Shown: positions 728 through 50,540, counted from the first letter of the stretch. The stretch is DNA of 64,000 nucleotides from an uncultured Candidatus Saccharibacteria bacterium (GCA_964457775.1 CAYWEW010000001.1:17783-81782); one strand, 5' to 3'. Made by a program: numbers and translations. Notes: a model not told the origin generated them from the letters alone.

Positions 728-1243
728 TTATTTATTTTTATCTCTCAAGTCCATAAGCATGCGAGCCACCACTTCTACATCATTAACATTTTCCATTATA
801 AATTCTTGTTCAGTTCCAGCACTTTGTACTTTTAATTTTCCATATCCAAAAAAAGTAGCCACGAATCCACTTTTCTCAAAAGAAACATCCTGAATGCGGT
901 TAAGTTGCATAAAAGCTTCTTCTCTTTCAAAAATTTGTTTTTGGTTAACTGCAATAATGTGTCTGTCAGTTACATACCAGGTGTCGAGATAGTCTTTTGT
1001 CCAAGCATAAAAAAAGCTAGTCCAAAATATAATCACAAACATAACAAGAAGCATACCAATATAACTATCAATGTTAATATCAATAAAAGACAAAGACCCT
1101 CTAGCGGTAAAATAATTTGCCCCGATTAAAAAAATAAAACAAGCAAAAAAATGAATGAAAAAATCTTCGACATAAACCATCCAGTGTTTACGAACTTTCT
1201 CCAACATTACTTCACCTTCTTCTAATAATTGTTCCTGTTCCAT
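728..1243 (-). CDS. Membrane protein with bacterial PH-like (bPH_2 / YdbS-YdbT-like) domain
   Basis: 171 aa with two N-terminal TM helices followed by a soluble domain (VTDRHIIAVNQKQIFEREEAFMQLNRIQDVSFEKSGF...GYGKLKVQSAG) typical of membrane-flanked bPH_2 proteins. Confidence 0.5.
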   Translation of the reverse strand: MEQEQLLEEGEVMLEKVRKHWMVYVEDFFIHFFACFIFLIGANYFTARGSLSFIDINIDSYIGMLLVMFVIIFWTSFFYAWTKDYLDTWYVTDRHIIAVNQKQIFEREEAFMQLNRIQDVSFEKSGFVATFFGYGKLKVQSAGTEQEFIMENVNDVEVVARMLMDLRDKNK

Positions 1244-1475
1244 ATACTTAAATCGCTAACATATAAATAAATAATAGGACTGAACCAAAAAGAAAAAACA
1301 ATCTCGCTATTTGTACCCCTTTTTCATTTTTACCAAATTTCCACCAAACATATAATAGAATTCCTGCAAGAGGAATATAGATAACTAATGTTGTGAATAA
1401 AATAATAAGCGCTCCGTCCATGTATTAAGTATATCAGAAGATAGTGAATGGATCATATTTTGTTGTTGGTAAAAG

Positions 1476-1504
1476 TTGACATATATACATATTTATGATA
1501 TAAT
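1476..1504 (+). promoter_or_regulatory. Sigma70-type promoter with exact consensus TTGACA-17 nt-TATAAT
   Basis: ttgaca(1476-1481), spacer tatatacatatttatga, tataat(1499-1504). GGAGG RBS at 1535 and ATG at 1545 follow. Confidence 0.6.
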
Positions 1505-1544: not shown

Positions 1545-1979
1545 ATGGAAACAGTAATTCAAAAGAAAGTTCAAGGTTTGGCTGAAATGGTTATTGCTTT
1601 GAACGAGCTTTTCGGTAACCATTTGTGCCGTCTTAAGTTAAATGATGGCGCTGTCAATTTTCCGAAAAGGGATTACTCTTTCGGCGAGGCAATTGTTGGT
1701 ACCAATAATTCTTTGGTATTGAGATTCCTTATGTGTGATGACAATAGCCCTGGTGATTTGACGCCGTCGGTTCATGCGGTTGAGATGAACTTTATCAACT
1801 GCGACCACATCATCATAAATGAGCCAGGGTCAGATGACGTGTCGGTCGAGTTTTACTCAATCGATTGGCATACGTACCACAACGCCCCTGGATACGAATC
1901 CCCGATTGCCGGCTTCCAAACCGAAAGGGCTCGTCGCCTACTCGCTCCGATACATGTTGGCAAGTTAACCTACATGTGA
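1545..1979 (+). CDS. Hypothetical protein (144 aa)
   Basis: ORF with GGAGG RBS 6 nt upstream and a perfect promoter. The 3' half is GC-richer than the surroundings. Confidence 0.5.
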   Translation: METVIQKKVQGLAEMVIALNELFGNHLCRLKLNDGAVNFPKRDYSFGEAIVGTNNSLVLRFLMCDDNSPGDLTPSVHAVEMNFINCDHIIINEPGSDDVSVEFYSIDWHTYHNAPGYESPIAGFQTERARRLLAPIHVGKLTYM

Positions 1980-2029: not shown

Positions 2030-4744
2030 TTATAAAGAGTATTTCTTCATTATTTCCGCTGTTACTTCGTCCACTGGACGGCCGTAGGTTAAGTAACTTA
2101 ACTCTTTTAATGCGTCAATCTTTGTAATGTCACCACGGGGAGGAAATGGTACGAACATATCAAATGGTTTCTTTGGGTCACCATTTGCTAGTATTTTTAT
2201 ATATGCATTATGATTAGATATTTTCATTATATCTCCCGCATTAAATGTTGGTTCAAACTTTGACTCAAGATACTTAGCATCTTCTGGAGAAACTCTATGT
2301 ATTGCCATAGATCCAACGTTACCGAATACTGCACCTTTGATGTCTTCGGTAAGTTGTCCAATATATTGATGAGCAACAGTGAGCGACAATCTATACTTAC
2401 GGGCCTCTGACAGAATAGACGCAATTGCTGGAGTGGTAACGTTTTGGAATTCATCAATATACAAAAAAAAGTCTGGCCGAATATTAGTGTCAACTCTTCC
2501 AAGTGCTGCTTGTGCGAATTTTCCAACAATAATTAGACCGAGTAACTCTGCATTCTTATCACCAAGCTTACCCTTTGCAAGATTAACAAGGAGTATCTTT
2601 TTTGTATCCATTATTTCTCTAAAATTAAACGCGGACTTTTCTTGGGCAATAATTGGACGCATAATGTCGTTTGACATAAACACATCGAATTTACTATTAA
2701 CATATTGTGTCCAATTTTGAAGACCTTGATCCCCTGTTGTCTTCTCCGCATTTTGCCAAAATTGCAAAATGAGAGGATTCTTGCATTTTGATAATTTATA
2801 ATCACGAAAATCTTTATCAGAAAACACACGTGAAATATCAAGTAGAGTGTTACCTGATTCTGGATGCTCCATAACTAACAATGTGGCATTACGGAAATAT
2901 TGCTCAAATCCTGGGCCTCCAGTTGCCTTCATATCAAACAATTTATCAAATATACCAAGAAGTTCATTAACCACAAAAGTCTTCGTTTCTGGATGATTTC
3001 TGTCATATTCAAGCATATTTAGCCCCATAGGACGTGGCATATACGCAGGATCAAAGTAAATCACATCTTTAGCCCTTTCAGCTGGAATATTCGCGAGAAT
3101 ATCTACAATATCCGTACCGTGTGGGTCGATGAAACAACAGCCTTCCCCATTATTAATATCCTGAATTATCATTCGCTTCAAAAAAACGGTCTTACCAGTA
3201 CCCGTCTGCCCTATAACATACATATGCCTCATACGGTCTTCTTTTCCGAAATGAATTTCTGTTTCTAGTCCTCTGTTTTTATTAACTCCAAGAATTATTC
3301 CTTCTGAACATAAATCAACTGGTGCTGGTGATTGTGTATAAGAGCTCTCTCTAACGTTTCCAACATCTTTTGACTGCATTGGAAAATGGAATATTGATGC
3401 AAGTTCTGAAAGATTAAGTGGGTAACTCTCATCCTCATTCCACAAACGATAAGAATAACGATGAAGTAATGCTTTTTGTTTTCTTCCTTCTACTTCTTCC
3501 CATTTTATACTGTTACCATTTATTTCAGCGAATTGTGAAAAAGATGCTTCCAATTCTCCACGTATTGCCTGAGCACGAGAAAGTGAAGATGCTGACGAAA
3601 CGATACGAATATTTGTTTCTATAATTGTCTTTGAAAGTTTTTCTTGGATAAGTTTGGTTGCACTTTCATCTATGTGTGTTGTTTTCTTCTCTTTATCTTT
3701 TTCAATTTCTTCTTTTGATTTTCCACCTGAAAACATTTCTCCTAGAAGATGAAGTGACTCCTTGAGTATGCTTTGTTTATCAATTACACGCTTAAGTGTC
3801 TCTCCTTTTCTTAAATCTTCTAACATTTCTCCGAATCGCTTCGCGAACACATCTCCTGCAGGACGAATTAATATTTGCAAAGCAAGACCTTCATCATCTT
3901 TTGCCATTTTGGTAAAAGAAGCGATTATAACCGTCATTGGGTCACCTTCCATTGTTGCATAAGTTTTAATCGGCAGAACTGGGTGCGTCATATGAGTCGC
4001 ATATGAGCAAGCGGTGATAGCATGGTCGTGGAAAATATTATAATCTTCTTTGCATTCTTTTACCTGTGCAGTCGGGAAAATACCTAAAACTACTTTTTCA
4101 AAAAGTGGGGCATAGTCTATATGAACTGCGCAATAAAATACTGCCGTTGTAACACCGTTTGCAACTGCAAGTTCAAGAGAATAATAATTCTTCTCTTTAT
4201 TCGTTGCATCAGATGCCAGTGCTTGCATAGAAGCATACCACTGCTCCATTAGCCCCATCATTTCTTTTACTTGTTTTGTTTGACCATCCCCTGCATCAGG
4301 CAATACTATTTCGAACAATTTCATGTGGAGAGCTTTCCATTCATCCTTTGATACATCATTTTTTAATTCATGTCCTGAAATTAAATATTGAACAACAAAT
4401 CTTTCAAAATCATCTTCCACTTGTGGGCTATTCAAATCTTCTGCTACTTTAAAAGCATTTTTTATACCCTTTTCAGCCATAACCTGAGAAAGCATACGGA
4501 CTTGAGCGTCTGTTTCCTTTGGTGCTAACCATTCAAGCAATCGGTGCTGTTCACCCGCAGAAACATGGGCTGTTGGTGCAATAATTTTTTCTAAAGGAGT
4601 TTCTTTATAATCACGCACAACTTCATGAGCTCTATCTTTTTCTGTAAATCTACCTTCGAAACCTTTTGCTCTTTCCATTTTATCTGCAACTTGAGAACGA
4701 AGATAAGCAATCTCTTCTTCAGGAGTTGTAAATTGAGTATTCAT
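2030..4744 (-). CDS. FtsK/HerA/TraG-superfamily P-loop ATPase, VirD4/TraD (type IV coupling protein)-like but without N-terminal TM segments
   Basis: 904 aa. Walker A IGQTGTGKT is followed by CFIDPHGTDIV. Walker B FFLYIDEFQNV is followed by EARKYRLSLTVAHQYIGQL, resembling the TraG-D_C RK..(Q..QL) motif. The N-terminal ~450 aa is a soluble helical region. Confidence 0.65.
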   Translation of the reverse strand: MNTQFTTPEEEIAYLRSQVADKMERAKGFEGRFTEKDRAHEVVRDYKETPLEKIIAPTAHVSAGEQHRLLEWLAPKETDAQVRMLSQVMAEKGIKNAFKVAEDLNSPQVEDDFERFVVQYLISGHELKNDVSKDEWKALHMKLFEIVLPDAGDGQTKQVKEMMGLMEQWYASMQALASDATNKEKNYYSLELAVANGVTTAVFYCAVHIDYAPLFEKVVLGIFPTAQVKECKEDYNIFHDHAITACSYATHMTHPVLPIKTYATMEGDPMTVIIASFTKMAKDDEGLALQILIRPAGDVFAKRFGEMLEDLRKGETLKRVIDKQSILKESLHLLGEMFSGGKSKEEIEKDKEKKTTHIDESATKLIQEKLSKTIIETNIRIVSSASSLSRAQAIRGELEASFSQFAEINGNSIKWEEVEGRKQKALLHRYSYRLWNEDESYPLNLSELASIFHFPMQSKDVGNVRESSYTQSPAPVDLCSEGIILGVNKNRGLETEIHFGKEDRMRHMYVIGQTGTGKTVFLKRMIIQDINNGEGCCFIDPHGTDIVDILANIPAERAKDVIYFDPAYMPRPMGLNMLEYDRNHPETKTFVVNELLGIFDKLFDMKATGGPGFEQYFRNATLLVMEHPESGNTLLDISRVFSDKDFRDYKLSKCKNPLILQFWQNAEKTTGDQGLQNWTQYVNSKFDVFMSNDIMRPIIAQEKSAFNFREIMDTKKILLVNLAKGKLGDKNAELLGLIIVGKFAQAALGRVDTNIRPDFFLYIDEFQNVTTPAIASILSEARKYRLSLTVAHQYIGQLTEDIKGAVFGNVGSMAIHRVSPEDAKYLESKFEPTFNAGDIMKISNHNAYIKILANGDPKKPFDMFVPFPPRGDITKIDALKELSYLTYGRPVDEVTAEIMKKYSL

Positions 4745-4785
4745 AGGTACAGTATATAGTTACTGGTTACTAGTTACTAGTGGAT

Positions 4786-4816
4786 ACAAAATCGGCCACT
4801 TCGTGGCCGATTTTGT
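4786..4816. terminator. Rho-independent terminator-like hairpin (13-bp perfect stem)
   Basis: acaaaatcggccac-ttcg-gtggccgattttgt, flanked by T/A runs, lies between two minus-strand genes. Confidence 0.55.
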
Positions 4817-4827
4817 ATTTTCATAAA

Positions 4828-5493
4828 TTAAACTGTTGGCTTTACTGGTTGAGCAAGTGGTGGTGGTACTAATTCCTCTGATATAGCTGGTTCCATATTT
4901 TGAACTACAGGTGCACTAGCTACTTCTACTACAGGAGTCGAATCAATAACCTCTGTTGCTATTGTTTGTGCTGGAATAGATTGTGCTACCACAGGTGATT
5001 CTTCTACTACTGTTGAAACTTCTACTTGAGAAATAACCTCAACTGGAACTTCTACAATTCCTGGTACTTCTACAGCTTCTGTCACTGGAGCTTCTTCAAC
5101 TACAGCAATCGGTTCCGGTGCTGATGGTCTCCATGATGAAACAGGTGGCACAGTTTCTGCAACAACAGGAGCCGTTACAGGCTCTACGGTTGGTGTAGGC
5201 ACTTCCACAACTGGTTGTGCGGGTTCTTGTGCAACTACCGGCTCTGATACTGGAGCTGGTGCAACAACCTCCACGGGAGCAGGAGCACTTACTGGTGTAA
5301 TCACTGGACTAACCACTTCTTCAGCTGGAGATGGGGCGGGTGTTGTCGTAACTGGTGGTACAGGAACTTGCGCTATAACTTCTGCTGGGTGGGATTTGTT
5401 AAGAACAACAAGCAGTACAACCAAAATAAGGATTACCGGTACCAAAAAAATAATTAATGGTGTATTCGCAAAAAAAGAAGAGATGGTTTCCAT
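4828..5493 (-). CDS. Membrane-anchored Pro/Val/Glu/Ala-rich low-complexity protein
   Basis: 221 aa. N-terminal TM (LIIFLVPVILILVVLLVVL) is followed by repetitive PVxxP/EVV tracts. Confidence 0.5.
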   Translation of the reverse strand: METISSFFANTPLIIFLVPVILILVVLLVVLNKSHPAEVIAQVPVPPVTTTPAPSPAEEVVSPVITPVSAPAPVEVVAPAPVSEPVVAQEPAQPVVEVPTPTVEPVTAPVVAETVPPVSSWRPSAPEPIAVVEEAPVTEAVEVPGIVEVPVEVISQVEVSTVVEESPVVAQSIPAQTIATEVIDSTPVVEVASAPVVQNMEPAISEELVPPPLAQPVKPTV

Positions 5494-5592: not shown

Positions 5593-6000
5593 TTAATTAG
5601 TTTTTTCTGGTGGTGTGTACACGGCACTTCCTAAAGCAAGTATCGGTAAAAAGATGAACGGTAACAATACTAGTCCAATTGTAAACGGAATGTCAAATCC
5701 AAATCTTTTACTTAGGTGATAAGATAGATATATACTAACAACCCAACTTACGACTGGTATAAAAAAACCGATCAATAACCACCACGGCTTACCCACAATA
5801 GCAGTCCAAACATACATATTATAAAAAGGAATAATCGCTTCCCACCATTTACGTCCAGCTTTTTTGAAAATTAAAATAATGGACGCAACCATTACAATTA
5901 AAAAAATTGCAAGAAATCCAAAAAATGCACTTCCGCCTAACATTGCCATTGGACCAAAACTAGAGGAACTAAAGGATGATATATTTTGAAAATAATTCAT
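5593..6000 (-). CDS. Small polytopic membrane protein (3-4 TM), hypothetical
   Basis: 135 aa, hydrophobic segments with a KKAGRKWWEAIIPFYNMY loop. Confidence 0.5.
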   Translation of the reverse strand: MNYFQNISSFSSSSFGPMAMLGGSAFFGFLAIFLIVMVASIILIFKKAGRKWWEAIIPFYNMYVWTAIVGKPWWLLIGFFIPVVSWVVSIYLSYHLSKRFGFDIPFTIGLVLLPFIFLPILALGSAVYTPPEKTN

Positions 6001-6044: not shown

Positions 6045-6815
6045 TTAAAGAACAGTAAGTATTTCTGCCTTCCCTTCTGTAATCAAAATCGTGTGTTCAA
6101 AATGAGCAGACTTTTTATGGTCCTTGGTAATGAAAGTATAGCCATCGTCTGCCAAATATACTTCATCAGTTCCATGATTAACCATCGGTTCAAGTGCAAG
6201 CACCATACCTGGAACAAGTTTAGGTCCTTTTATACCATCATCAAAGTTCGGCACATATGGTTCTTCATGAACTTTGTAACCGACACCGTGCCCTGATAAT
6301 ATTTTTACAATACCGTATTTTTTTGGTATTGATTTTTCAATGGCTTTTGAAATATCATTTACATAGTTTCCACCTCTAGCAGCATTTATTCCTGCCATGA
6401 GTGCCTCCTTGGTAACTCTCATCAACTCTTCATCTTCTTTACTAATCTTTCCAACAGCAACCGTGACAGCAGAATCAGATATCATTCCTTTATGTGTCAC
6501 TCCACCATCTAACCCAACTATGTCCCCCTCTTTTAGTACTCTATCCCCACCTATACCATGAACTACTTCATCATTAACTGAAATACAAATACTTCCAGGA
6601 TATGGATAGGAGGCTCCAAAAGGCTTGTAGTTAAGAAATGCCGGCTTATCCCCCATATCAGTAATCATTTTATAAACAAAATCATTTAAATAACCAGTTG
6701 TGACTCCCGGTTTTACTTCTTTTGAAACAGCTTGAAGCACCGAGGCTAACCTCTTACCACTTTCCCGTAGTTTTTTTATATCATTTTCATTTTTAAGTTT
6801 AATGTCGTATTTCAT
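6045..6815 (-). CDS. map: Methionine aminopeptidase type I
   Basis: Type I MetAP active-site motifs (VVHGIGGDRVLKEGDIVGLD, HGVGYKVHEEP, LALEPMVN, SAHFEHTILIT). Canonical position after adk. Confidence 0.9.
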   Translation of the reverse strand: MKYDIKLKNENDIKKLRESGKRLASVLQAVSKEVKPGVTTGYLNDFVYKMITDMGDKPAFLNYKPFGASYPYPGSICISVNDEVVHGIGGDRVLKEGDIVGLDGGVTHKGMISDSAVTVAVGKISKEDEELMRVTKEALMAGINAARGGNYVNDISKAIEKSIPKKYGIVKILSGHGVGYKVHEEPYVPNFDDGIKGPKLVPGMVLALEPMVNHGTDEVYLADDGYTFITKDHKKSAHFEHTILITEGKAEILTVL

Positions 6816-6817
6816 AA

Positions 6818-7420
6818 CTAATTATTTTTTAAGGAATTCAATTTCTGCATAATTTCATTTTGAACTTCTTCAATAGTTTGATTGCCATTTATACGTAAAA
6901 CGACATAGCGAGGGTCATTCAAATAAACATCAAGTGTTGGTAATACATCTGTCTCGAACCAATCCATACGATTAGTAACATCAGATTCTATCTTGTCATC
7001 TTCACGTCCACGTAAAGCGATGTGTTTTCTTGAAACACTTTCCGACGTTTCTAAATAAATTACAATTGGTTTCTGATATCCCAAAAAATTAATTGCACTA
7101 TGTAAAACATGAACCTCAAAAGGCTTTCTTGGTGCACCATCTAGGATAATAGTTTCTCCTCCTTTTAAATTATCAATAAAAAAGTTTGACCACCCCCAAA
7201 CTGCCAAAAATTCTGGTTGAAGAGCTCCTGTGTCATTAATATTTTTGGCCAATTTTGCTACATAATTATCTTTTGTAATAAAATCACGAAATCCACCACC
7301 TGTAGTGACATGAATAACTTTCTCCACACCTTGATTCATTAGAGTGCTCCTAAGTAATTCGGCTTGTGTTCCTTTCCCACTCCCAGAACGTCCAATCAAA
7401 ATAAAGAATTGTTTCTGCAT
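6818..7420 (-). CDS. adk: Adenylate kinase
   Basis: P-loop GRSGSGKGTQAELL and ILDGAPR motif. Sits between secY and map as in the spc operon. Confidence 0.85.
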   Translation of the reverse strand: MQKQFFILIGRSGSGKGTQAELLRSTLMNQGVEKVIHVTTGGGFRDFITKDNYVAKLAKNINDTGALQPEFLAVWGWSNFFIDNLKGGETIILDGAPRKPFEVHVLHSAINFLGYQKPIVIYLETSESVSRKHIALRGREDDKIESDVTNRMDWFETDVLPTLDVYLNDPRYVVLRINGNQTIEEVQNEIMQKLNSLKNN

Positions 7421-7561
7421 CTAACAATACTACCATAAAACATATACTTGTAACTAGTTATGCTTCCCTTGATAATAACCTTATTCTCTTTCTAATTCCT
7501 TGGAACAGTAGCACTAATATCTAAAATTGTTTTAAATTTATTAATCATAATTAGTTAATTA

Positions 7562-8413
7562 CTATCTAAAGCCAGACAATTTACCATCTCTTGTATACTC
7601 TGACTGAAGATCTGCTGACTGCTTGCTGCCGTCCTGATTAACTACTTCAATTCTAACTATGTCGAGTTTTTGTGAATAAGTAAAATCAGCATGAAGAGTG
7701 CTGTCATCGTAGCAAACATCTTCATTAAAACTGCCAATTTTACTATTCTTTTTTCTTTCAATACAGACATATGCCGTTCCTTGTGAACTGTCGTTATTGG
7801 GAACTACTTTAGCAACAAGAACCAGATCATGTCTCTCAAAAAAATTAATAGTTGCGTTATCAAATCTAGCTATTTTCAGTAAATTTTCTGGGCTTAATCT
7901 TGGCACTTTTGTTACACGTGCTGGTTCAACTGCAGAAATTCCATACTTTTCTGCTAACCTTGGTATTATTGTTTTTTTCGCTAGTTCAATAAATTCGTAT
8001 CTATTATTAAATTGTTTAAAAGTACAGGATGAATCCATAATATGTTCACCTGTTTCGGAATAAATGCCAAATTGTATTGATGCACATCTAAAAGTAAGAA
8101 CTGCTGGGCCAAATTTAACCAATGGAATATTTCTTTTTGCTAGCTCTTGATTAAAAAGGGTTTCGTTTTGTATGAGCATCCTCCTAAACTGCATCTCACT
8201 ACTTTCTTGAAATTCTACACCAGAGGTCTCTGCTAAAGCATTTTCTGATGTAACAATTTGTCCACCTGCAACAGCTGTACCAACAAGAATTGCTGTACTG
8301 ATTGTATTCCTAACGCGACCAAAAATATCTTTTTCTTTATTATCTGATTTTAATTGTGGTAAATTTTCTTCTATATTTTCCATATTATATATAAGTATAT
8401 ATCTATATAGCAA
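7562..8413 (-). CDS. Hypothetical protein with N-terminal TM anchor, inserted between secY and adk
   Basis: 283-aa ORF with no recognisable motif. The start codon is uncertain (MLYRY... or MENIEEN...). Confidence 0.45.
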   Translation of the reverse strand: MLYRYILIYNMENIEENLPQLKSDNKEKDIFGRVRNTISTAILVGTAVAGGQIVTSENALAETSGVEFQESSEMQFRRMLIQNETLFNQELAKRNIPLVKFGPAVLTFRCASIQFGIYSETGEHIMDSSCTFKQFNNRYEFIELAKKTIIPRLAEKYGISAVEPARVTKVPRLSPENLLKIARFDNATINFFERHDLVLVAKVVPNNDSSQGTAYVCIERKKNSKIGSFNEDVCYDDSTLHADFTYSQKLDIVRIEVVNQDGSKQSADLQSEYTRDGKLSGFR

Positions 8414-8519
8414 TGTTACCTAAATAAAATATAAATATTGATCAAATTTACAAAAAGACCAATAAACTTGGCCAATTTTGTTTATCTAATAAATAATTAC
8501 CGAAAAGACTAATCAATTA

Positions 8520-9788
8520 TTAATACTCCCTCATCGATAGCTGGGCGTCAATTTTCTTAATAACATCAAGAACAACAGACACTGCAATCAAAAGAGATGT
8601 ACCTCCAACCTGTATGGCTGTTAACCCAGTCATACCTTGAACAATAACTGGAAGTACTGCAACAAGACCCAAGAAAATTGCACCAAAGAAAGTAATACGT
8701 CCCAGAACATAACCAATGTATTCTGCGGTCTGAAGACCTGGACGAAAACCTGGAACGAAGGCTCCGTTCTTCTGAAGATTATCTGCTGTTTTTTCTGGAT
8801 CAAACATAACTGCTGTATAGAAGTATGTAAATGAAACAACCAGCAAGAAATAAGCACTTCCATATACCCACTGATTAGCTAAGAGTGTGTTAACTGTACG
8901 TGCAAATGACTGAAGTGATACTTGTGATGATGTTGCAAGCAATTGACCAATTAATTGTGGGAAAAGTAGTATAGAGATAGCAAAAATAATTGGAATAACA
9001 CCAGCTTGATTAAGACGAAGAGGAAGATATGTTGAAGCTCCAAGTGGGCTTCCTCCACCCATTCGTGACTGACGAGCGTAAGTAACAGGAACAGGACGTT
9101 CAGCTTCTGTAACATATACAACTCCAGCAATAACAACGAGAGATAGAACTAGTAGGCCGACAAGCATTGGGATTTGTGAGACATCAAATGTCACAAAAAA
9201 TTGACTAAGACTTTGTGGAATAGCTGCAACAATTCCTGCAAAGATAATAAGTGAGACTCCATTTCCAATACCTCTTTCATTAATTTGTTCTCCGAGCCAC
9301 ATCATGAGCATAGTTCCTGCAGTTACAATAATGATATTTGCAACCATAACTGATTGTGCAAGTTGTGGAATCACATTTTGTCTTTCAAGTAGAGTAATAA
9401 GTGCGAATCCTTGTAATATAGCAAGAGGAAGTGTTAACAGTCTTCCATACTGTACGAATCTACGACGCCCAGCATCCCCTTCTTCTTGATACATCTCTTT
9501 AATACGTGGTGAGAGTACTGTTGTTAATTGCATAATAATTGAGGCAGTAATATATGGACCAACTCCAAGCATTACTATTGAAAAAGATGAGATACCTCCT
9601 CCAGCAAAAACATTAAGCATACTCAAAAAACCGTTATTAGAAAGGTACTCTGCGAGATTTGAAGCATCAACCCCTGGAATTGGAATAACGGCTAATACGC
9701 GAGTAAGTAGCAAAATGCCAATAACAAAGAAAATGCGGTTACGTAGTGACCTGTCGGAAAATATTACCTTGATTGTTTTCATAATCAA
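8520..9788 (-). CDS. secY: Preprotein translocase subunit SecY
   Basis: 422 aa, 10-TM profile, SecY-like N-terminus (RIFFVIGILLLTRVLAVIPIPGVD). Confidence 0.9.
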   Translation of the reverse strand: MIMKTIKVIFSDRSLRNRIFFVIGILLLTRVLAVIPIPGVDASNLAEYLSNNGFLSMLNVFAGGGISSFSIVMLGVGPYITASIIMQLTTVLSPRIKEMYQEEGDAGRRRFVQYGRLLTLPLAILQGFALITLLERQNVIPQLAQSVMVANIIIVTAGTMLMMWLGEQINERGIGNGVSLIIFAGIVAAIPQSLSQFFVTFDVSQIPMLVGLLVLSLVVIAGVVYVTEAERPVPVTYARQSRMGGGSPLGASTYLPLRLNQAGVIPIIFAISILLFPQLIGQLLATSSQVSLQSFARTVNTLLANQWVYGSAYFLLVVSFTYFYTAVMFDPEKTADNLQKNGAFVPGFRPGLQTAEYIGYVLGRITFFGAIFLGLVAVLPVIVQGMTGLTAIQVGGTSLLIAVSVVLDVIKKIDAQLSMREY

Positions 9789-13683: not shown

Positions 13684-16600
13684 CTACTGACATGTCTCAT
13701 CTCTCATCGCCTGTCTTGTAACTTCATAAACCATTCCGGTTGGAGCAAGACCTATAGTTGCTTGGTAACCTTTTACAGCTTCTATAGTTTTATCACCATA
13801 AAATCCTGAGACTTCATTTAATAGTCCTTTAGATTGTAGGAATTTTTGTAATGTAGTTACTGCTGATGATTCTGCTCCTCGGTGAAGGTTGCGTGATATG
13901 TAAATGCATGCTGTACTTGCACCTAATACTTTAGCATTACCATTACTTGAGCTACTAAGTGTAACGACTTTTACCAAAACCTGTGTGGATGTTGAACCAT
14001 TTACACCCCCACATTTCATCCCATAATAAATACTATTTGTTACTGGCTTAATTGTTAAAGTGCCACTTGTGGCCCTTGTAACTGGACCATATTGCCCTGC
14101 GTGACTAAAATCACAATAATCAACATTAGTTGACGACCATCTCAAGGTTGTTGATCCATTAAGTGGCACCTGTGTTGGGTTTACTGTCATAGTAATTGTT
14201 GGTATTTTTAATACTGCAGGAGCAACCACTGTTGGGGTTGGAGTCAATGTATAAGTTTTTATAGTACCAGTTCCTCTTAGGCACATATCTGCATTTTTTG
14301 GTCCACTTGCGTCACAATAACTAATACATGCACTATCTGTATCCGCTACTGATGTTGCTGGGTTTGGTGATGCAATCATATTTGTGGCAGTATTTGTTCC
14401 CCCTCTAAAAAGACCACAAGTTAGTCTTGCCGTCGTATTAGTGACAACTGGTGTTGGTGTTGTAACTACAGAACCATTAACTATAAACGAATTTATTGGG
14501 AAATTGTAGATTAAAGCACCATGATGTTGTATATTGCCACCGATAAAATCATTCCATTTAAACGATGCAGGTAAGGCAAGGGAAGAAATTAATTTTGGTG
14601 TAAGACCTGTCTGTATTGTACCTGATACAGTTGCAAATACAGAAAATGTAATTGATGTACCTGCCGGTATCTCAAACGGAGAACTAGACGTTATCAAAAT
14701 ATATGACTCTAAAACCGTTGCAGATAAACCTGCTATAGTTGTATTACCATTTGCAACTCGTGGTGAAGAAATTTTAAAGCCATTTATACCAATTGAGGAA
14801 ACATTAAGAATAGTTGATGTAAAACCTATTTTTCCATTTACATCAGCACTCACTGTGAATTCACCAATCTTATTTTCAGAACCAAGCACTAGTGAGCCCC
14901 CACCATTACTTAAAGTAACTGTTGGTTTTGAAGCAACAAGTGTCATAATATTTGAGGATACTGGTGTGTTATTTATTATTACTGAACCATTAGCATTAGT
15001 TACTTCAATGTAATTAAGTGTTAATTTAACATTAGATACGCCAGAAGTTAAACTTCCTCCTGATGTTGAATTCTGAAAACCACTAAACTTAACTGTAACA
15101 GGCACATCGACTCCTGTTGAAGAAACAGGTAAGCTTAGTCCTGTAGCTGTTACGTTACCATTCACAACTGGAGCCGTTACTCCTCCAACAGTAACACTAG
15201 TTACAGCATCATTGCCTGTAGTTGAGAATCTTAGTTCACGAACAGTTGCAGACGTGTTAAATTCGGAAGTTCTAAGTTTAAATGTTGCAATACCGAATGT
15301 TGAACCGCCAACTACGAATTGTGATACAGGCGATGATGACACTAGTGTTGGATTAGCAATAGAAACAGAAGAAGTGTTCATGGCTGAAACTGCTGCTGTA
15401 GCCTGACTTGAATTAGTTATTGTTGTTGGGGTTTGATTTGGGCTTGGAGATGTCGCCATAGTTGGTGCTGGAGCTGAAGCGGGTGGTATATTTGAGTAAA
15501 TTTCCTCCATTTCCCATGTACATCTAATTGATTTTGTAGGATTATTATAACTATTAGTTACACAGTTAGTATATGCGTATTCTTTTGAAACATTTTCCGT
15601 AGAAATAAATGGCGCTGCACTACCTCCCAAATAACCTTTGTATGAACCCAGTTGAGTGGTAGGTATTGTTGTTATTTCTTGTTGAACATTCAAACCATAA
15701 TTGTTACTATTCCCTGTTCGAGAATTAGTAATATTTATAGTATGAAAACCAGATGAAAGATTTCTTGTTAATGCAAAGTCGCTTTTCTTAATAGAAATAA
15801 TACTATCTGTAGGATTAAATTTACTAACCATAGAATTACCCATGCCGTCTATTTGCAAATAATTACCATCTAAGTTTAATCTAGCTCCAGAAATTGTTAT
15901 ATATCCACTTACATCAGTTGCTTTAGATATATATGGCGAAGTTTCACCGATGATAATTACACTATTACTCTTCGCGTAGTTTACATATGAAGAAACATCA
16001 ACGACTTTTTGTGTGTTGGTGTTAATATCAACATAAGAAAGGTTCGAAGGCCTAAAACTATAAGCGCCAGCAAATAATTCTTTGGTTGGAATTGTATTTC
16101 TAATATAAATTGTAGCTGTATCATTTGCCTTGATTATTAGATTAGTGTCATTGGAATAATTATAGTCAGAAATAAAGCTGGACACAGAGCCTCTGTATTT
16201 TACGCCATTAGAATTAATACGCACATTTTCATTATTAACAAATCCTCCTAAATTTGTTGCAACGCCATACACACCATACACATCTATATCTGAATTTCCA
16301 GCAGTGATTTTTACCTTTGCAACACCAACTAATTCTGTCTCTTTATTATTTAAGTCATAAGAAAGTTTAATTGATGGTGCTCCAACAAACTCAATAACGG
16401 GGTATATCGTATTTGAAGAACTTAGTGCGCTTTCGGTTGTAAATGATAGAAACTCTCCCTTAACATTTCCTTTTGAGCCACTTGCAACTATTCTATAGTA
16501 ATATGTTGTATTGGGAGCCAGTTTGTAAATATTTGTTGAGCAACTTACAACTGTGTTTCCATCGTAGATATATGAACATGGCGTTGCGTTCAATTGTCCG

Positions 16601-17253
16601 TACATTGATGTCCCCCATTCAAACCAAGCTTTGGGTTTTAAAGTTCCATTATTAGGTTCAACATATCCAGCGATAAGAGCACTGTTATTTGTATAGTTAG
16701 CTCCAGTTGTTTTAACAGACACAAAAGAAAGGGTCTCTGATGTATTAGTGCGACACGGTTCATAAGAAACAGCACCATTACAATTATATATAGTTTCAAC
16801 AGGATTGTTTACATTAGGAGTTTTTGTTGACGGAACATCAACTGAAACAGTTTTAGTGTTTACTGAAGAAGCACTTCTACAGCTTATCTCCCTTATCTTC
16901 GCTCGTGTCACAGGACCAACATAACCAGAAGTTATGAACCCGTTCTTTTTTTGAAAATATTTAACTGCTTTAAGAGTAGAAGGACCGAACACGCCATTAG
17001 GTTCTGCTGTAAGAAACCCTTGGTCTTGAAGGAAATATTGTAAATCAGATACTTCTCCGTTAGTATTAGAATCTTTTGATTTCTTATAAGTTAAGTTATA
17101 AGATAAATCTGTACATCCCTCACTTGCTTGGTCTGGGGCTTCATCACCAACAATACTTGTTGTAACAGGAACCGCTATTGATGTTGCTGAAACAATTGAT
17201 AAAGAAAAACAAATTCCACTGATAATAGCACCTACTGTTAAATATTTTTTCAT
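13684..17253 (-). CDS. Giant secreted/surface protein (1189 aa) with two peptidoglycan-binding (PG_binding_1-like) domains
   Basis: Signal peptide (MKKYLTVGAIISGICFSLSIVSA). PGBD-like DLQYFLQDQGFLTAEPNGVFGPSTLKAVKYFQKKNGF near the N-terminus and LQKFLQSKGLLN...GDKTIEAVKGYQATIGL at the C-terminus. Long T/S/N-rich beta-type middle. Confidence 0.7.
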   Translation of the reverse strand: MKKYLTVGAIISGICFSLSIVSATSIAVPVTTSIVGDEAPDQASEGCTDLSYNLTYKKSKDSNTNGEVSDLQYFLQDQGFLTAEPNGVFGPSTLKAVKYFQKKNGFITSGYVGPVTRAKIREISCRSASSVNTKTVSVDVPSTKTPNVNNPVETIYNCNGAVSYEPCRTNTSETLSFVSVKTTGANYTNNSALIAGYVEPNNGTLKPKAWFEWGTSMYGQLNATPCSYIYDGNTVVSCSTNIYKLAPNTTYYYRIVASGSKGNVKGEFLSFTTESALSSSNTIYPVIEFVGAPSIKLSYDLNNKETELVGVAKVKITAGNSDIDVYGVYGVATNLGGFVNNENVRINSNGVKYRGSVSSFISDYNYSNDTNLIIKANDTATIYIRNTIPTKELFAGAYSFRPSNLSYVDINTNTQKVVDVSSYVNYAKSNSVIIIGETSPYISKATDVSGYITISGARLNLDGNYLQIDGMGNSMVSKFNPTDSIISIKKSDFALTRNLSSGFHTINITNSRTGNSNNYGLNVQQEITTIPTTQLGSYKGYLGGSAAPFISTENVSKEYAYTNCVTNSYNNPTKSIRCTWEMEEIYSNIPPASAPAPTMATSPSPNQTPTTITNSSQATAAVSAMNTSSVSIANPTLVSSSPVSQFVVGGSTFGIATFKLRTSEFNTSATVRELRFSTTGNDAVTSVTVGGVTAPVVNGNVTATGLSLPVSSTGVDVPVTVKFSGFQNSTSGGSLTSGVSNVKLTLNYIEVTNANGSVIINNTPVSSNIMTLVASKPTVTLSNGGGSLVLGSENKIGEFTVSADVNGKIGFTSTILNVSSIGINGFKISSPRVANGNTTIAGLSATVLESYILITSSSPFEIPAGTSITFSVFATVSGTIQTGLTPKLISSLALPASFKWNDFIGGNIQHHGALIYNFPINSFIVNGSVVTTPTPVVTNTTARLTCGLFRGGTNTATNMIASPNPATSVADTDSACISYCDASGPKNADMCLRGTGTIKTYTLTPTPTVVAPAVLKIPTITMTVNPTQVPLNGSTTLRWSSTNVDYCDFSHAGQYGPVTRATSGTLTIKPVTNSIYYGMKCGGVNGSTSTQVLVKVVTLSSSSNGNAKVLGASTACIYISRNLHRGAESSAVTTLQKFLQSKGLLNEVSGFYGDKTIEAVKGYQATIGLAPTGMVYEVTRQAMRDETCQ

Positions 17254-17406: not shown

Positions 17407-18804
17407 CTACCAAGAGAATGGCGCTGGGTTAGAAACTACCGTTGCCTTTGATGTTCCAATCACTTCCCCTCTTAAATTACTTACAATTACTTCGAAGACA
17501 ACTTCTTGTCTGTACCATGTAGGGTTAGTTATCATTGCTGGAATTTCATTTTGGAATGATGTTGGTGCAAGCGGAATAACAAAGTCTTGGCCACATCCAA
17601 CTCCTGCAATACTTACCGATACAGATGATGGGCAAATTGCATGAATCTTGATTGAATAATTTCCAAACAATGTATTATTCCATGAAGTTCCAGTTGGAAT
17701 ATTCAAATATAATTTGAATTTCTCTCCTGAATCAACTGGTGTCTTACTTGCTCCTAATGTTACATTTGCATAACCATAATATGGGCGACGAATAGTTATA
17801 GGTGCAACTGCGGCACGGAAGTTGGATACATTCCCTGCGATATCAGTCATTGGTGTAGCTATAACAATCTTAAATGATCCCTGTTGATTATTATCACAAG
17901 CTCCAGCACACACTGCATCTAATATTTCTTTTGTAAGTACGAATGAGAAACTATTACCTGATGTAACTGCTACTTGCTTACTTTGTCCTGTGCTTCCATT
18001 TTCAACTAGGATTTGAAGTTGTGCAATATTAAGATTACTTGTTGTCCATGATAAATAGACAGTATCCCCTTCGTTGTATAATGCGTTTGAAGTTGGACTT
18101 GTAATAGTAAGTGTTCCTGGTTGTGGAACAACACCATAAGCATAACCAGTTGATGGATTATATGTTAATCCAGTGCTTTGAATTTGATTTTGTGTTGTTG
18201 CAGGAATAAGTACATTTGTAGGAATAGAAGTATTTATTGCCTGATATTCATTTGAAGAATAGTTTGAAGTGTAAGCTGAAGAATAATAAGGAGTATTATT
18301 ATTTAAGATGTTTGAAAGAGAAATATTATTTTCTTGAGGAGTTGCATAAATAACAGGAGTTGTAACTTGTGGAGAAATAACAACTGCGTATGGGTCATAT
18401 TGATCAACATAAGTGATACCAGAACTATATCCATAATAACTGTACTCGTTATATGAATACATGTCGCCACGAACATCAGAATCACAAAGTCTCTCATTTA
18501 CAGCGTTACGAGTTGATTCTCCAACTTGACCAGTCATTGAGATATTATTATCTCTTTGGAATTTCATCACTGCCTGCTTTGTTCCCTGTCCAAAATAGCC
18601 ATTTGGGGTTGCATATAAATATCCAGCCTTTGAAAGCATATTTTGAAGCACATAAACATCGTTATTTTCTGACCCAACTTGTAAAGTTCTATTGATTTGA
18701 GTTGTACAAGTGTTTACCGGTGTATTGTTAAAATACCCAGCAAATACTGCCGTTTGACCACCAAAAACCCCCAGAAAACCCAATAATATAATAATCTTTT
18801 TCAT
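17407..18804 (-). CDS. Secreted protein (465 aa) with one peptidoglycan-binding-like domain
   Basis: Signal peptide MKKIIILLGFLGVFGGQTAVFA. PGBD-like DVYVLQNMLSKAGYLYATPNGYFGQGTKQAVMKFQRDNNI. Confidence 0.6.
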   Translation of the reverse strand: MKKIIILLGFLGVFGGQTAVFAGYFNNTPVNTCTTQINRTLQVGSENNDVYVLQNMLSKAGYLYATPNGYFGQGTKQAVMKFQRDNNISMTGQVGESTRNAVNERLCDSDVRGDMYSYNEYSYYGYSSGITYVDQYDPYAVVISPQVTTPVIYATPQENNISLSNILNNNTPYYSSAYTSNYSSNEYQAINTSIPTNVLIPATTQNQIQSTGLTYNPSTGYAYGVVPQPGTLTITSPTSNALYNEGDTVYLSWTTSNLNIAQLQILVENGSTGQSKQVAVTSGNSFSFVLTKEILDAVCAGACDNNQQGSFKIVIATPMTDIAGNVSNFRAAVAPITIRRPYYGYANVTLGASKTPVDSGEKFKLYLNIPTGTSWNNTLFGNYSIKIHAICPSSVSVSIAGVGCGQDFVIPLAPTSFQNEIPAMITNPTWYRQEVVFEVIVSNLRGEVIGTSKATVVSNPAPFSW

Positions 18805-21463: not shown

Positions 21464-21536
21464 GTGCCCCCAGAAGGGATCGAACCTTCGACCGTCTGCT
21501 TAAAAGGCAGCTGCTCTACCGACTGAGCTATAGGGA
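21464..21536 (-). tRNA. tRNA-Lys (anticodon UUU)
   Basis: Manual cloverleaf: acceptor GTCCCTA/TGGGGGC (two G-U pairs), D-arm GCTC-AGTCGGTA-GAGC, anticodon loop CTTTTAA, T-arm GAAGG-TTCGATC-CCTTC, discriminator A, no encoded CCA. Confidence 0.8.
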
Positions 21537-21842
21537 CATGTTTTTTATTTTACTACCTACTAACTAGGTAAACGTTTTAATATATCTACCGACTTGCGTC
21601 AACGCTTGCTAGCTTATGACATCTTCGCTTCCAGGAAGCGAATCTGTTGATTCGGCCACGTTCTCTAGCTACGCGGGACCCTTAATGGTAATTAGGATGA
21701 ATAACATTAAACATCTTTTTACTAATAACGTTTCAATATACTAACATAAAATACAATACTTTTCCAGTATGGGAAGAGAGTTGGTTTATAAACGTACTTT
21801 CTTCCCCATATAATCACAGAGAATATCTGTTACACTTAATTT

Positions 21843-28487: not shown

Positions 28488-28521
28488 AATTGTTTTATCT
28501 ATTACCTTTAATAAGAATTAT

Positions 28522-28550
28522 ATTATATCACCTTTATTATTAAATGTCAA
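28522..28550 (-). promoter_or_regulatory. Minus-strand sigma70-type promoter with exact consensus TTGACA-17-TATAAT driving the surface-protein gene
   Basis: Reverse complement reads cTTGACAtttaataataaaggtgaTATAATataattc, about 35 nt upstream of the ATG at 28487. Confidence 0.55.
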
Positions 28551-28564
28551 GCCCTTTTTATAAT

Positions 28565-28595
28565 AAAAAACAGGTCACCAAAGGAGGTGACCTGT
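28565..28595. terminator. Terminator hairpin downstream of the 266-aa minus-strand gene
   Basis: aaaaaacaggtcacc-aaaggag-gtgacctgt. Confidence 0.5.
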
Positions 28596-28615
28596 GCTGA
28601 GCATACAGCTTGCTT

Positions 28616-29416
28616 TTACTTCTGCTGATAGGTAACTTGGTCAATTTCAACCCTTCCACCACCACCAACACGGCCGATCCAGACGCTTTCCGACTCCCCT
28701 TGTTTCGGAGAAATAATCGAGAAAGTGGCACAGAACGGGGGCCTTCCCTCTCCGTTGCCGGAGGAGAAGATGCACCTGCCAGGATTTTGCTGGGTGGCAG
28801 TGTTTTCGCGCCAATACCAAACGGCATCAGAGCGAGAAACGTGACCAGTAACTACGGGTGGAACGACGGCGGGTATGACTGGTGCAGAAGCTGTGGCTGG
28901 AATCACTGGTTTTTTTGGTTTTTCCGCCTTCGGTTTACTGGTCGGCTTTTTGGGAGTCACCGGAGCAACTACCACCTTGTCTTCCATGTTCGGCTTTTGG
29001 ACCTCACTTGTAGGACAAGCAACTTCACACTTCTTCGCCAAGGCGATTAGTGCTTGGTCAGCCTTCTTTTCAACCGAAGCAAGACCGTTCTTGACCCCCG
29101 CAACCTCGCTGTTATCAGCTTTGGTAAACCAGAGAACAGTTCCAGTAATCAGAGCAAGACCAATCGCAAGCAAACTGCACCAGGAGCAACCTTTGTTGTT
29201 CTTAGGTGAATCGCCACCGGATGACGGAGGAGGTGTGTCACCACCAAGTCCGTTTTCCCTGAAAGACTTTTCAGCCTTTCTGGCGGCGTCCGAAGCTTCT
29301 TTCGACGCGGCGTCAGCTGCTTTTTTGGCGGCTGCGGCGGAAACTGCTTTCTGTGCTGCTTTTTCCATTTCCTCCGCAGCAATGCGGAGGCCTTCAGGTG
29401 TGATCTTCTTGGTCAT
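28616..29416 (-). CDS. Hypothetical bitopic membrane protein with N-terminal Ala/Lys-rich coiled coil; GC-rich gene
   Basis: 266 aa. Strong RBS (aaggaggtcatcATG), cytoplasmic AAEEMEKAAQKAVSAAAAKKAADAASK, one TM (CSLLAIGLALITGTVLWF), Pro/Lys-rich extracellular part. The gene is about 55% GC against about 35% background. Confidence 0.55.
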   Translation of the reverse strand: MTKKITPEGLRIAAEEMEKAAQKAVSAAAAKKAADAASKEASDAARKAEKSFRENGLGGDTPPPSSGGDSPKNNKGCSWCSLLAIGLALITGTVLWFTKADNSEVAGVKNGLASVEKKADQALIALAKKCEVACPTSEVQKPNMEDKVVVAPVTPKKPTSKPKAEKPKKPVIPATASAPVIPAVVPPVVTGHVSRSDAVWYWRENTATQQNPGRCIFSSGNGEGRPPFCATFSIISPKQGESESVWIGRVGGGGRVEIDQVTYQQK

Positions 29417-29556
29417 GATGACCTCCTTTAAATTGATTTTTCAAAATATCATTAACGACTGAATTTACCTGTCGATGACTCTGTGGATGATTATATCATA
29501 TTATTATTAAAAAGTCAAGCTTTACATCTACGAAAAGTACTGCATTATTTCAAAAT

Positions 29557-29592
29557 AAAAACCCCTCTAATCTTTCGATTTGAGGGGTTTGT
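29557..29592. terminator. Terminator hairpin downstream of the lipoprotein gene
   Basis: aaaaacccctc-taatctttcgattt-gaggggttt. Confidence 0.5.
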
Positions 29593-29610
29593 TGGGAGTG
29601 CCGGATTCGA

Positions 29611-30267: not shown

Positions 30268-30381
30268 GACTTTCTCCTGTAATTAGAATCAATGAGCAGA
30301 TCTCATTTGATTGGAATGATTTCCAACCTACTGAGCTGTATATAGTATACATGTTTTATGGATTTTGTCAAGCTAAATTAT

Positions 30382-50467: not shown

Positions 50468-50540
50468 GCATCCGTAGCTCAGTTGGTAGAGCCGTCGTCT
50501 TATACACGACTGGTCCCTGGTTCGAGTCCAGGCGGATGCA
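50468..50540 (+). tRNA. tRNA-Ile with unusual UAU anticodon (reads AUA)
   Basis: Manual fold: acceptor GCATCCG/CGGATGC, D-arm GCTC-AGTTGGTA-GAGC, anticodon stem GTCGT/ACGAC with loop CTTATAC (U33, UAU, A37), T-arm CCTGG-TTCGAGT-CCAGG, discriminator A, no CCA. Confidence 0.75.

Follow-up and report, generated by a model that had tools for sequence, protein, structure and literature searches.

A predicted type IV coupling protein lineage without a transmembrane anchor, often encoded behind the spc operon of Patescibacteria

Coding sequence and domain layout of the ATPase

We analyzed a 64,000-nucleotide stretch of DNA (GCA_964457775.1, CAYWEW010000001.1:17783-81782; hereafter the window), deposited under the name of an uncultured Candidatus Saccharibacteria bacterium, with respect to one gene on its minus strand that encodes an ATPase of 904 aa. 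An initial annotation had taken the product for a soluble coupling ATPase of the VirD4/TraD kind. The reading frame, the sequences GQTGTGKT and DPHG, and the TraG-D_C-like segment RKYRLSLTVAHQYIGQL that it listed were all recovered in the 904-aa translation. The open reading frame (ORF) is genuine and not a chance frame, because its product has over 120 full-length homologues at 73-100% identity, in a family of thousands of members. A protein identical to the 904-aa ATPase is already public (NCBI and Logan data; P0001). The gene and the parts of its product, including those aligned with TrwB, the type IV coupling protein (T4CP) of plasmid R388, are as follows:

2030..4744, minus strand: ATPase gene, whole ORF with stop codon, ATG start, 904 aa (ORF list)
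4340..4744, minus strand: N-terminal helical module, aa 1-135 (helices H8-H122 of the AlphaFold2 model)
3335..4336, minus strand: alpha/beta N-domain, Pfam DUF8128, aa ~137-470 (precomputed match PF26449)
2033..3334, minus strand: T4CP-type nucleotide-binding domain with an inserted all-alpha region, aa 471-904
3188..3211, minus strand: Walker A GQTGTGKT, aa 512-519, aligned with the TrwB P-loop GATGTGKS
3116..3127, minus strand: DPHG motif, aa 540-543, aligned with TrwB DPNG
2450..2470, minus strand: Walker B FFLYIDE, aa 759-765, aligned with TrwB LWLFIDE
2351..2401, minus strand: RKYRLSLTVAHQYIGQL, putative Arg-finger/sensor segment, aa 782-798, aligned with TrwB GRKAGLRVVAGLQSTSQL

Residue conservation was judged in two alignments, A2 and A3, of 42 and 74 sequences, respectively. 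Invariant positions comprise G512, G515, G517, and K518 of Walker A; D540, P541, and G543 of the DPHG motif; D764 and E765 of Walker B; and R782, K783, Q793, and Q797 of the Arg-finger/sensor segment, which corresponds to the start of Pfam TraG-D_C. Within the DUF8128 domain, E191, P258, Q290, and E447 are among the invariant residues, and the domain closes with the conserved motif LNxxELASxFHFP. It gave no match in a PDB search.

An AlphaFold2 model was computed from the 74-sequence alignment, which includes relatives at 34-66% identity, and reached a pLDDT of 83.5 and a pTM of 0.57; with 28 close homologues alone, the pLDDT was 44 and the model unusable. The model resolves the N-terminal half into a helical module of ~135 aa followed by an alpha/beta domain of ~330 aa, which replaces the single helical N-domain of ~450 aa proposed in the initial annotation. 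A flexible, disordered insert rich in K and E occupies aa ~313-372 within the DUF8128 domain. Between Walker A and Walker B, the model places an all-alpha insertion with helices at aa ~587-700. The hhalign alignment with TrwB runs on through this region, and the inserted domain of T4CPs is thus present. We take the insertion to be the probable equivalent of the all-alpha domain of TrwB.

The maximum Kyte-Doolittle hydropathy of the ATPase over 19 residues is 1.37 and lies below the threshold used for a transmembrane (TM) helix, a 19-residue mean of 1.6. By this crude measure the protein has no TM helix, as the initial annotation had stated. The same scoring returned two TM segments for TrwB of R388, as known. 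The N-terminal TM anchor that is typical, though not universal, in the T4CP family is therefore missing from the 904-aa ATPase.

Family assignment and conservation

Two Pfam models of T4CPs, T4SS-DNA_transf (24.2 bits) and TrwB_AAD_bind (23.9 bits), matched the ATPase barely above their gathering cut-offs, and TraG-D_C (20.6 bits) stayed slightly under its gathering score of 22. DUF87 and FtsK_SpoIIIE were below their Pfam gathering scores, DUF87 near the threshold. The NCBIfam search returned sub-threshold fragments of TraD and VirD4-like models and nothing else. When the family profile built from alignment A2 (42 sequences, 29-51% identity to the query) was compared with the PDB, TrwB was found at 9e-8, DotL at 3e-5, and HerA at 4e-4. 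Against the single TrwB sequence, hhalign gave a probability of 96% over aa 497-801 and brought into register the P-loop and Walker B, the helical insertion between the two, and the RK…Q…Q segment. Walker A, Walker B, and the Arg/Gln sensor are thus intact in a P-loop domain of the FtsK/HerA class, and we assessed the best profile and structure matches as being to T4CPs rather than to models of the sister clades. HerA, VirB4, and FtsK rank below the T4CP models by sequence. Since HerA and FtsK do not outscore the TraG/VirD4 family, we conclude that the protein is a T4CP-type ATPase, and the VirD4/TraD/TrwB assignment of the initial annotation stands.

An alternative is that the protein is a HerA-type helicase for repair or anti-phage defense, or a second VirB4-like assembly ATPase, in which an N-terminal domain would precede a C-terminal ATPase. 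By E-value, the best Foldseek hits in the PDB were full-length TrwK/VirB4 proteins (1.7e-13, ~900 columns) with HerA close behind; together with the near-threshold DUF87 match, the PADLOC mad8 hit of 46.8 bits, and the labels "DUF87" or "HerA-like" that various sources attach to homologues, this speaks for such an ATPase. However, a 30-sequence VirB4 profile aligned with the C-terminal ATPase domain only (hhalign probability 80%, E 1.4e-5) and did not match the N-domain, whereas a single TrwB sequence sufficed for the higher probability given above. The CagE_TrbE_VirB N-terminal domain joined to a VirB4 C-terminal ATPase was not found in the protein, nor were the HAS-barrel and HerA-type ATPase of HerA helicases, nor the alpha/beta motor, gamma domain, and N-terminal membrane domain of FtsK/SpoIIIE. 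No NurA, Sir2, other HerA partner, or defense gene lies nearby. Moreover, members from outside the candidate phyla radiation (CPR) fill the T4CP slot next to a relaxase, with a separate VirB4-like ATPase in the same operon. We therefore regard a HerA- or VirB4-like identity as improbable. A reading as a defense system was also rejected, as the mad8 hit reflects generic mad8/HerA P-loop similarity.

Outside Patescibacteria, the ATPase is most closely related to the coupling ATPases of conjugation systems in Gram-positive bacteria, and homologues are encoded on plasmids and phages. Among plasmids, 525 records matched, 318 of them from Bacillus, and the homologues are annotated as "DUF87 domain-containing protein" of 833-886 aa. 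The A2 profile matched the proteins of pBM69 and of a B. subtilis plasmid at E ~1e-89 and near full length including the N-domain, phage G gp156 at 3e-92, and SPO1 gp27.4 at 8e-62. A search by tblastn found 67 phage records, 63 of them Bacillus phages, with SPO1 gp27.4 covering aa 201-900 and phage G gp156 aa 166-852 of the window protein. In the PHROG collection, family 5156 ("unknown function") matched at E 8e-79, aa 158-901 aligning with positions 43-807 of its 824. Foldseek against viral models (BFVD) retrieved phage G gp156 (E 5e-39) and JL S5MSQ0 (E 6e-37, TM-score 0.61, 842 columns). Homology thus extends over both the N-domain and the ATPase, and no TM-like segment was seen by hydropathy in the Bacillus plasmid or SPO1 homologues tested.

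The gene neighborhoods of these relatives are those of conjugation-type modules. On the B. subtilis MH-1 plasmid and pBM69, the T4CP homologue is followed, in this order, by a replication-relaxation protein, a conjugal transfer protein, and a TcpE-family or conjugal transfer membrane protein; the operons continue with an ATP-binding (VirB4-like) protein of ~850 aa and another conjugal transfer protein. On an Embleya plasmid, the T4CP homologue is encoded after PrgI and an ATP-binding protein and before a replication-relaxation protein and NlpC/P60, in that order. Phage G (L089, 85059-93336) encodes TrbL-like gp153, VirB4-like gp155, T4CP-like gp156, and, as gp146, a Replic_Relax protein. In SPO1 (L088, 92636-97329), gp27.4 overlaps the start of gp27.3 (Replic_Relax), and upstream lies gp27.9, an actin-like partition protein of the Alp7A/ParM type. 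These contexts argue for a genuine coupling-protein lineage of monoderm conjugation-type modules that is naturally anchor-less. Outside Patescibacteria, the lineage thus appears to provide the coupling ATPase of monoderm conjugation modules on Bacillus and actinomycete plasmids and in phage G, and SPO1-like phages carry a predicted T4CP-relaxase pair, which may serve replication or segregation. A literature search on DUF8128 and SPO1 gp27.4 retrieved no functional study.

As a side observation, lytic Bacillus phages contain conjugation-type modules whose T4CP-like proteins are annotated without function. An orphan 708-aa T4CP-like protein is encoded on plasmid p131_1 of Bradyrhizobium sp. 131 (L092, 150073-152199) among genes for CHAT-domain and TPR proteins; its ATPase domain is 33% identical to that of the window protein (E 3e-56), and it may illustrate a further use of this ATPase clade outside conjugation.

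Compared with the T4CPs of pBM69 (WP_003349917.1) and B. subtilis MH-1 (WP_121549396.1), the window protein has the same architecture over nearly the full length and likewise no TM-like segment. The likeness to the Embleya protein (WP_331738717.1) is confined to the ATPase half, with a tblastn match over aa 443-890 (E 2e-47). All three plasmid proteins are similar in motif set and size (812-886 aa), are annotated as "DUF87 domain-containing" or "type IV secretory system conjugative DNA transfer family", and head or sit within conjugation operons beside a Replic_Relax relaxase, TcpE/PrgI, a VirB4-like ATPase, and a cell-wall hydrolase. The window gene differs in being chromosomal and unlinked to such genes, and its product is ~23% identical to theirs and bears the additional N-terminal helical module. 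SPO1 gp27.4 and phage G gp156 (PHROG 5156) are homologous to it over the full length in sequence and structure, but they are phage-borne and paired with a Replic_Relax nickase, to which SPO1 adds the actin-like partition protein and phage G the TrbL- and VirB4-like proteins. TrwB, which with VirD4, DotL, and Cagβ belongs to the classical T4CPs, is more remote: it carries two TM helices at its N-terminus, lacks a DUF8128 domain, and shows 13-16% identity and a score of just 33 bits with the family profile; its gene lies beside that of its relaxase on a plasmid.

Coupling proteins without a TM domain form an accepted subclass, class iii of the Llosa and Alkorta scheme as presented in PMC7431656. 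One of them, TraJ of pIP501, is recruited by the membrane protein TraI (PMC7431656). By description, TraJ is an example of a coupling protein that dispenses with a TM domain, as the window protein does, and depends on another protein to reach the membrane. No conserved membrane recruiter like TraI adjoins the patescibacterial ATPase gene.

Taken together, the profile matches and motifs show that the ATPase, its catalytic motifs intact, belongs to a distinct T4CP lineage devoid of a TM anchor. In this lineage, the DUF8128 alpha/beta N-domain precedes a nucleotide-binding domain of the VirD4/TrwB type that carries an all-alpha insert.

We then determined how widely the gene is distributed. An exhaustive search of 1.84 billion cluster representatives at 50% identity gave 19,151 matches at E≤1e-3 and 4,620 at E≤1e-30, with a conserved family core that runs from aa ~137-190 through the C-terminus. 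The more than 120 clusters at 73-100% identity contain proteins of equal length, and the named ones come from metagenome-assembled genomes (MAGs) of Candidatus Paceibacterota, Parcubacteria, or Nomurabacteria. In a scan of one genome per species, at least 600 GTDB species had a match. The best 80 of these loci are nearly all labeled Patescibacteria and include Paceibacterota, Nomura-, Taylor-, Zambryski-, Adler-, Kaiser-, Niyogi-, Moran-, Falkow-, Vogel-, and Azambacteria; the labels "Saccharibacteria", "Bdellovibrionales", and "Gammaproteobacteria" on some TPA bins were regarded as unreliable automatic ones and not used. Some family members (P0167, P0172, P0181, and others) reach 1,200-2,000 aa through C-terminal extensions of 400-1,200 aa, in which a Pfam scan of P0181, P0167, P0127, and P0165 detected no fused domain.

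Gene order was compared between the window and 85 related loci, each inspected within 6-10 kb of the ATPase gene. The relevant part of the window is:

6045..9788, minus strand: 3' end of the spc operon, from translations, with secY (8520-9788), an ORF of 283 aa, adk (6818-7420), and map (6045-6815)

The order secY-adk-map-ATPase on one strand recurs in 22 of the 85 loci, down to ~41-50% identity of the ATPase. Relatives at 79%, 74%, and 51% identity have the ATPase gene right behind map, where it is the final same-strand gene after …L18-S5-L15-secY-adk-map, and a relative at 41% identity still has adk-map two genes away from it. Downstream, ndk is present in 20 loci and is the immediate next gene in 14 of them. 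The identities of orthologous proteins to those of the window in three of these loci are:

ATPase: L002 79%, L003 74%, L006 51%
Map: L002 91%, L003 84%, L006 56%
SecY: L002 83%, L003 82%, L006 59%
L15: L002 88%, L003 80%, L006 48%
Adk: L002 47%, L003 65%, L006 34%

The identity of the ATPase orthologues runs parallel to that of Map, SecY, and L15. Judged from these comparisons, the ATPase appears to evolve about as slowly as Map and SecY, which points to purifying selection at the level of housekeeping genes. The module had initially been considered possibly degenerate; with this degree of conservation and catalytic motifs that are all invariant, the gene is not. We conclude that, in Patescibacteria, the ATPase gene is a stable, vertically inherited core chromosomal gene and not part of a plasmid transfer module. 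Because nearly all of the tiny patescibacterial genomes keep an ATPase of ~800-900 aa that evolves as slowly as SecY and Map, an important function is implied.

These data also bear on the idea that the gene, together with those for a proline-, valine-, and glutamate-rich (PVE-rich) protein and small membrane proteins beside it, was left behind by a decaying integrated conjugative element or prophage. Homologues are indeed common on plasmids and phages, and the interval between map and the ATPase gene is a hotspot of lineage-specific insertions. However, the more than 120 clusters at 73-100% identity, the invariance of every motif, and the persistence of the spc-operon synteny argue against decay; in addition, the base composition of the gene equals that of the surrounding DNA, no integrase, relaxase, or repeat boundary was found, and the neighbors differ between close relatives. 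Conservation and synteny effectively refute a remnant, which we consider very improbable indeed.

Partners and candidate function

The N-terminal helical module is restricted to a long-form clade, which includes the window protein. Short forms of ~760-840 aa start near window residue 137-160, and in 17 loci a same-strand ORF of 125-156 aa lies directly upstream of them. A hidden Markov model (HMM) built from 13 of these small proteins matched the N-terminal ~30-137 residues of ~45 long forms with up to 35 bits and E-values of 2e-10 to 1e-5, the window protein scoring 19.3 bits over aa 52-113 (E 1.8e-5; all E-values refer to a local set of ~240 sequences). The small proteins and the long-form N-termini have the motif KG[IV]..A..VA....D.[YH].LD.FH in common. 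The helical N-module of the window protein is thus the counterpart, fused to the ATPase, of a protein that stands alone in other lineages. Its occurrence as fused or separate unit is a Rosetta-stone indication that the module and the ATPase act together.

Two further protein families were noticed beside the ATPase gene in distant lineages. A second upstream family of 164-194 aa, with an acidic N-terminus and the C-terminal motif WLKxIPGVNKFFLEQEAKIKTDKI, occupies the same slot as the 125-156-aa partner in seven loci (L004, L065, L066, L075, L080, L082, and L085); an hmmsearch with its profile revealed no detectable relation to the window N-module, and none to the 125-156-aa partner was detected. 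A soluble protein of 205-268 aa with the motif NYASKSKLVEGDILKLTI directly follows the ATPase gene in distant patescibacterial lineages (L004, 12717-13334; L005, 12632-13438; L066; L085). The L004 and L005 copies are 46% identical, and this protein may be a lineage-specific partner. By tblastn, neither family has a homologue in the window.

As the initial annotation had suggested a conjugation, DNA-uptake, or secretion module around the ATPase gene, we searched for its components. In neither the window nor the 85 related loci did we find a gene for VirB4, VirB3, VirB6, a pilin, or a relaxase, and tblastn with Replic_Relax, VirB4-like, TcpE, and TrbL queries returned nothing from them. The 64-kb window also yielded no competence gene, no gene of a type IV secretion system (T4SS), and no paralogue of the ATPase. 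A local module of this kind is thus absent from all these loci, and the genetic linkage to relaxase and/or mating-pore genes that marks T4CPs was not seen. We conclude that the patescibacterial ATPase has lost its linkage to both.

This picture agrees with a published survey (Quiñonero-Coronel et al., 2025; PMC12102498). VirB4 was detected in 2,417 of 3,035 Patescibacteria assemblies and forms a clade nested in the monoderm MPF-FATA class. The survey further lists 5,713 T4CP hits in 2,918 genomes, and its authors state that exaptation "cannot be ruled out" for the patescibacterial T4CP homologues. In a 20-genome sample of its Table S3, a t4cp1 (VirD4-profile) hit occurred in 19 genomes and never near virB4. 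These homologues come from the same phylum as the window family and share with it the pattern of VirD4-type hits in nearly every genome that almost never lie by virB4, a likeness by description and not by a protein-to-protein match of the t4cp1 hits. Both the existence of the protein in databases and the occurrence of virB4-unlinked T4CP homologues across Patescibacteria (in print since 2025) are therefore already known. The parts of PMC12102498 drawn on here do not describe the DUF8128 N-domain, the absent anchor, the spc-operon synteny, the split or fused partner, or the tie to PHROG 5156 and to the T4CP-Replic_Relax modules of Bacillus plasmids.

By analogy with TrwB, the ATPase probably assembles into a hexameric ring, in which ATP would be hydrolyzed at the subunit interfaces by Walker A K518 and Walker B D764/E765 with R782 acting in trans. 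Hydrolysis would then drive or gate the transit of a substrate, engaged via the helical insertion, either through the ring or past it. The membrane or other partners would be reached by protein-protein contacts instead of TM helices, and the DUF8128 domain and the N-terminal helical module are candidates for making these recruiting contacts. The description as a non-canonical substrate-recruiting ATPase, offered in the initial annotation, is plausible. As its partner, we tentatively favor, with somewhat less than even confidence, a chromosomal MPF-FATA-derived T4SS located elsewhere in the genome, which about 80% of Patescibacteria carry. The ATPase would recruit a non-essential, relaxase-independent cargo, DNA or protein, to that T4SS. 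We favor this partner because the T4SS and the T4CP lineage share an origin in monoderm conjugation and because an N-domain that is a candidate for docking has been retained; it is the weakest, inferred step of the explanation.

Several observations weigh against a T4SS-feeding ATPase. Hexamer formation, substrate, and membrane recruitment are all modeled on TrwB, and the pTM of the AlphaFold2 model leaves the placement of the domains relative to each other uncertain. The absence of VirB4, VirB3, VirB6, pilin, and relaxase genes from the window and the related loci belongs here, too. In the survey cited above, just 148 of the 5,713 T4CP hits lie near virB4, and relaxases were found in 103 genomes only. 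Its Table S3 sample has VirB4 in 15 of the 20 genomes and t4cp1 without VirB4 in five, for which MAG incompleteness may account. According to the same source, the T4SS genes of S. epibionticum are essential for epibiotic growth while its T4CP homologue, not necessarily the orthologue of the window protein, is non-essential. Finally, no obvious mating-pore gene was seen in the 16-kb stretch around SPO1 gp27.4.

Part of this evidence speaks at the same time for an exaptation, namely that the descendant of a conjugative T4CP is now a T4SS-independent, soluble, hexameric nucleic-acid motor whose DUF8128 domain and helical N-module bind a Patescibacteria-specific partner. Candidate roles would be pulling in or processing DNA from the competence/type IV pilus route, or chromosome resolution or segregation. 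The conserved housekeeping position behind secY-adk-map, often with ndk next, fits such a motor, as do the scarcity of virB4 linkage and of relaxases in the phylum (PMC12102498), the t4cp1 hits in genomes without a VirB4 hit, and the dispensability of the T4CP homologue, reported like that of comEC, in S. epibionticum co-culture. The same holds for SPO1 gp27.4, which has a Replic_Relax nickase and the partition protein gp27.9 as companions but no pore gene in the 16-kb stretch inspected, for the orphan relative among CHAT/TPR genes on the Bradyrhizobium plasmid, and for the conserved flanking genes in distant CPR lineages, which encode small soluble proteins and not membrane proteins. On the other hand, no nickase, nuclease, ComEC/ComFA, or recombinase gene is consistently adjacent, and canonical FtsK and RecA are already encoded a few genes away in related loci, a proximity that is not family-wide. 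Furthermore, the N-domain is common to bona fide conjugative T4CPs, which argues that its docking function has been kept. We consider exaptation possible and give it about one third of our confidence.

A more specific form of this idea, an early domestication into a T4SS-independent housekeeping DNA motor that works with a small helical partner fused to it in the present lineage, seems to us doubtful to a slightly greater degree. It would allow for co-expression with the spc operon, though a strong hairpin at 4784-4818 of the window separates the ATPase gene from the genes upstream. Import or processing of host-derived or environmental DNA and chromosome handling in dividing, host-attached cells would be candidate roles. 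If domestication had taken place, a component of plasmid transfer would have become core cell biology of a whole phylum.

If the ATPase feeds a T4SS, as we favor, the question becomes which cargo it delivers; if it has been exapted, it would serve another DNA transaction. Either outcome bears on how the episymbiotic Patescibacteria exchange material with their hosts, and the DUF8128 domain and the N-terminal partner, whether split or fused, are concrete handles for interaction studies. The window itself is of modest practical value: its protein can already be found in databases, and the pattern across the phylum is published.

Neighboring genes and other features of the window

The ATPase gene is flanked by the following features:

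5593..6000, minus strand: gene for a DUF5684 membrane protein, 135 aa, 3 TM segments (Pfam DUF5684, 76.8 bits)
4828..5493, minus strand: gene for the PVE-rich protein, 221 aa, one N-terminal TM segment, low complexity
4784..4818, minus strand: hairpin between the PVE-rich and ATPase genes, perfect stem of 16 bp (read from the sequence)
1545..1979, plus strand: convergent gene for a protein of 144 aa, marking the 3' boundary of the ATPase transcription unit
1248-1421, minus strand: gene for a 57-aa protein with 2 TM segments
728-1243, minus strand: gene for a bPH_2 (bacterial PH domain) protein, 171 aa, 2 TM segments

The PVE-rich protein consists of 24% V, 18% P, 11% E, and 11% A and matched no Pfam, NCBIfam, or PADLOC entry. 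Its gene has a positional analogue in L008 only and is absent between map and the ATPase gene in L002, L003, L009, and L006. The DUF5684 gene was not found at the map-ATPase position in relatives, where the interval holds different inserts or none. Both genes are lineage-specific insertions into this interval, confined to the closest clade. Thus, the PVE-rich and small membrane proteins to which the initial annotation drew attention are real neighbors, but they vary among relatives, close ones having map directly upstream, and do not constitute a conserved module. Considered as conserved partners of the ATPase, the PVE-rich, DUF5684, 57-aa, and bPH proteins were discarded, being absent from relatives or present in the closest ones only. 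The pair of genes for the 57-aa and bPH_2 proteins (728-1421) is conserved at 60-63% identity downstream of the ATPase gene in the closest relatives only (L002, 13079-13794; L008; L009).

The hairpin at 4784..4818 folds as RNA with -24.4 kcal/mol (z -7.1; none of 200 shuffled sequences was equally stable) and is likely a terminator or insulator. A second, terminator-like hairpin (1994-2026) lies between the stop codons of the convergent ATPase and 144-aa genes, and the latter is preceded by a perfect extended sigma-70 consensus, TTGACA-17-TATAAT with TG (1476-1504, plus strand).

The window as a whole is core chromosome, with genes for ribosomal proteins, secY, adk, map, polA, tsaE, fpg, EF-Tu, secDF, recG, ftsH, RNase J, IF-3, ndk, cmk, nrdR, and tmRNA. 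The tmRNA (54152-54541, plus strand) and two tRNAs (50468-50540, plus strand; 21465-21537, minus strand) all exceed their Rfam gathering scores. The S10/spc ribosomal cluster (12857-39452) is interrupted by lineage-specific inserts. After L5 (30916-31470) follow, in this order, a Gly-zipper protein, a GC-rich stretch, a DUF11 protein, tsaE, polA, and others, and two large PG_binding_1 proteins (13684-17253, 1189 aa; 17407-18804, 465 aa) are encoded before S8. L002 and L003 likewise encode a PG_binding_1 protein in the L5-S8 interval. The GC content peaks at 0.46 in the region 28000-30300, compared with ~0.35-0.38 elsewhere, and long overlapping ORFs occur there on both strands. One of them, 28616-29416 (minus strand), has no Pfam match, and another, 29611-30267 (minus strand), encodes a glycine-zipper protein.

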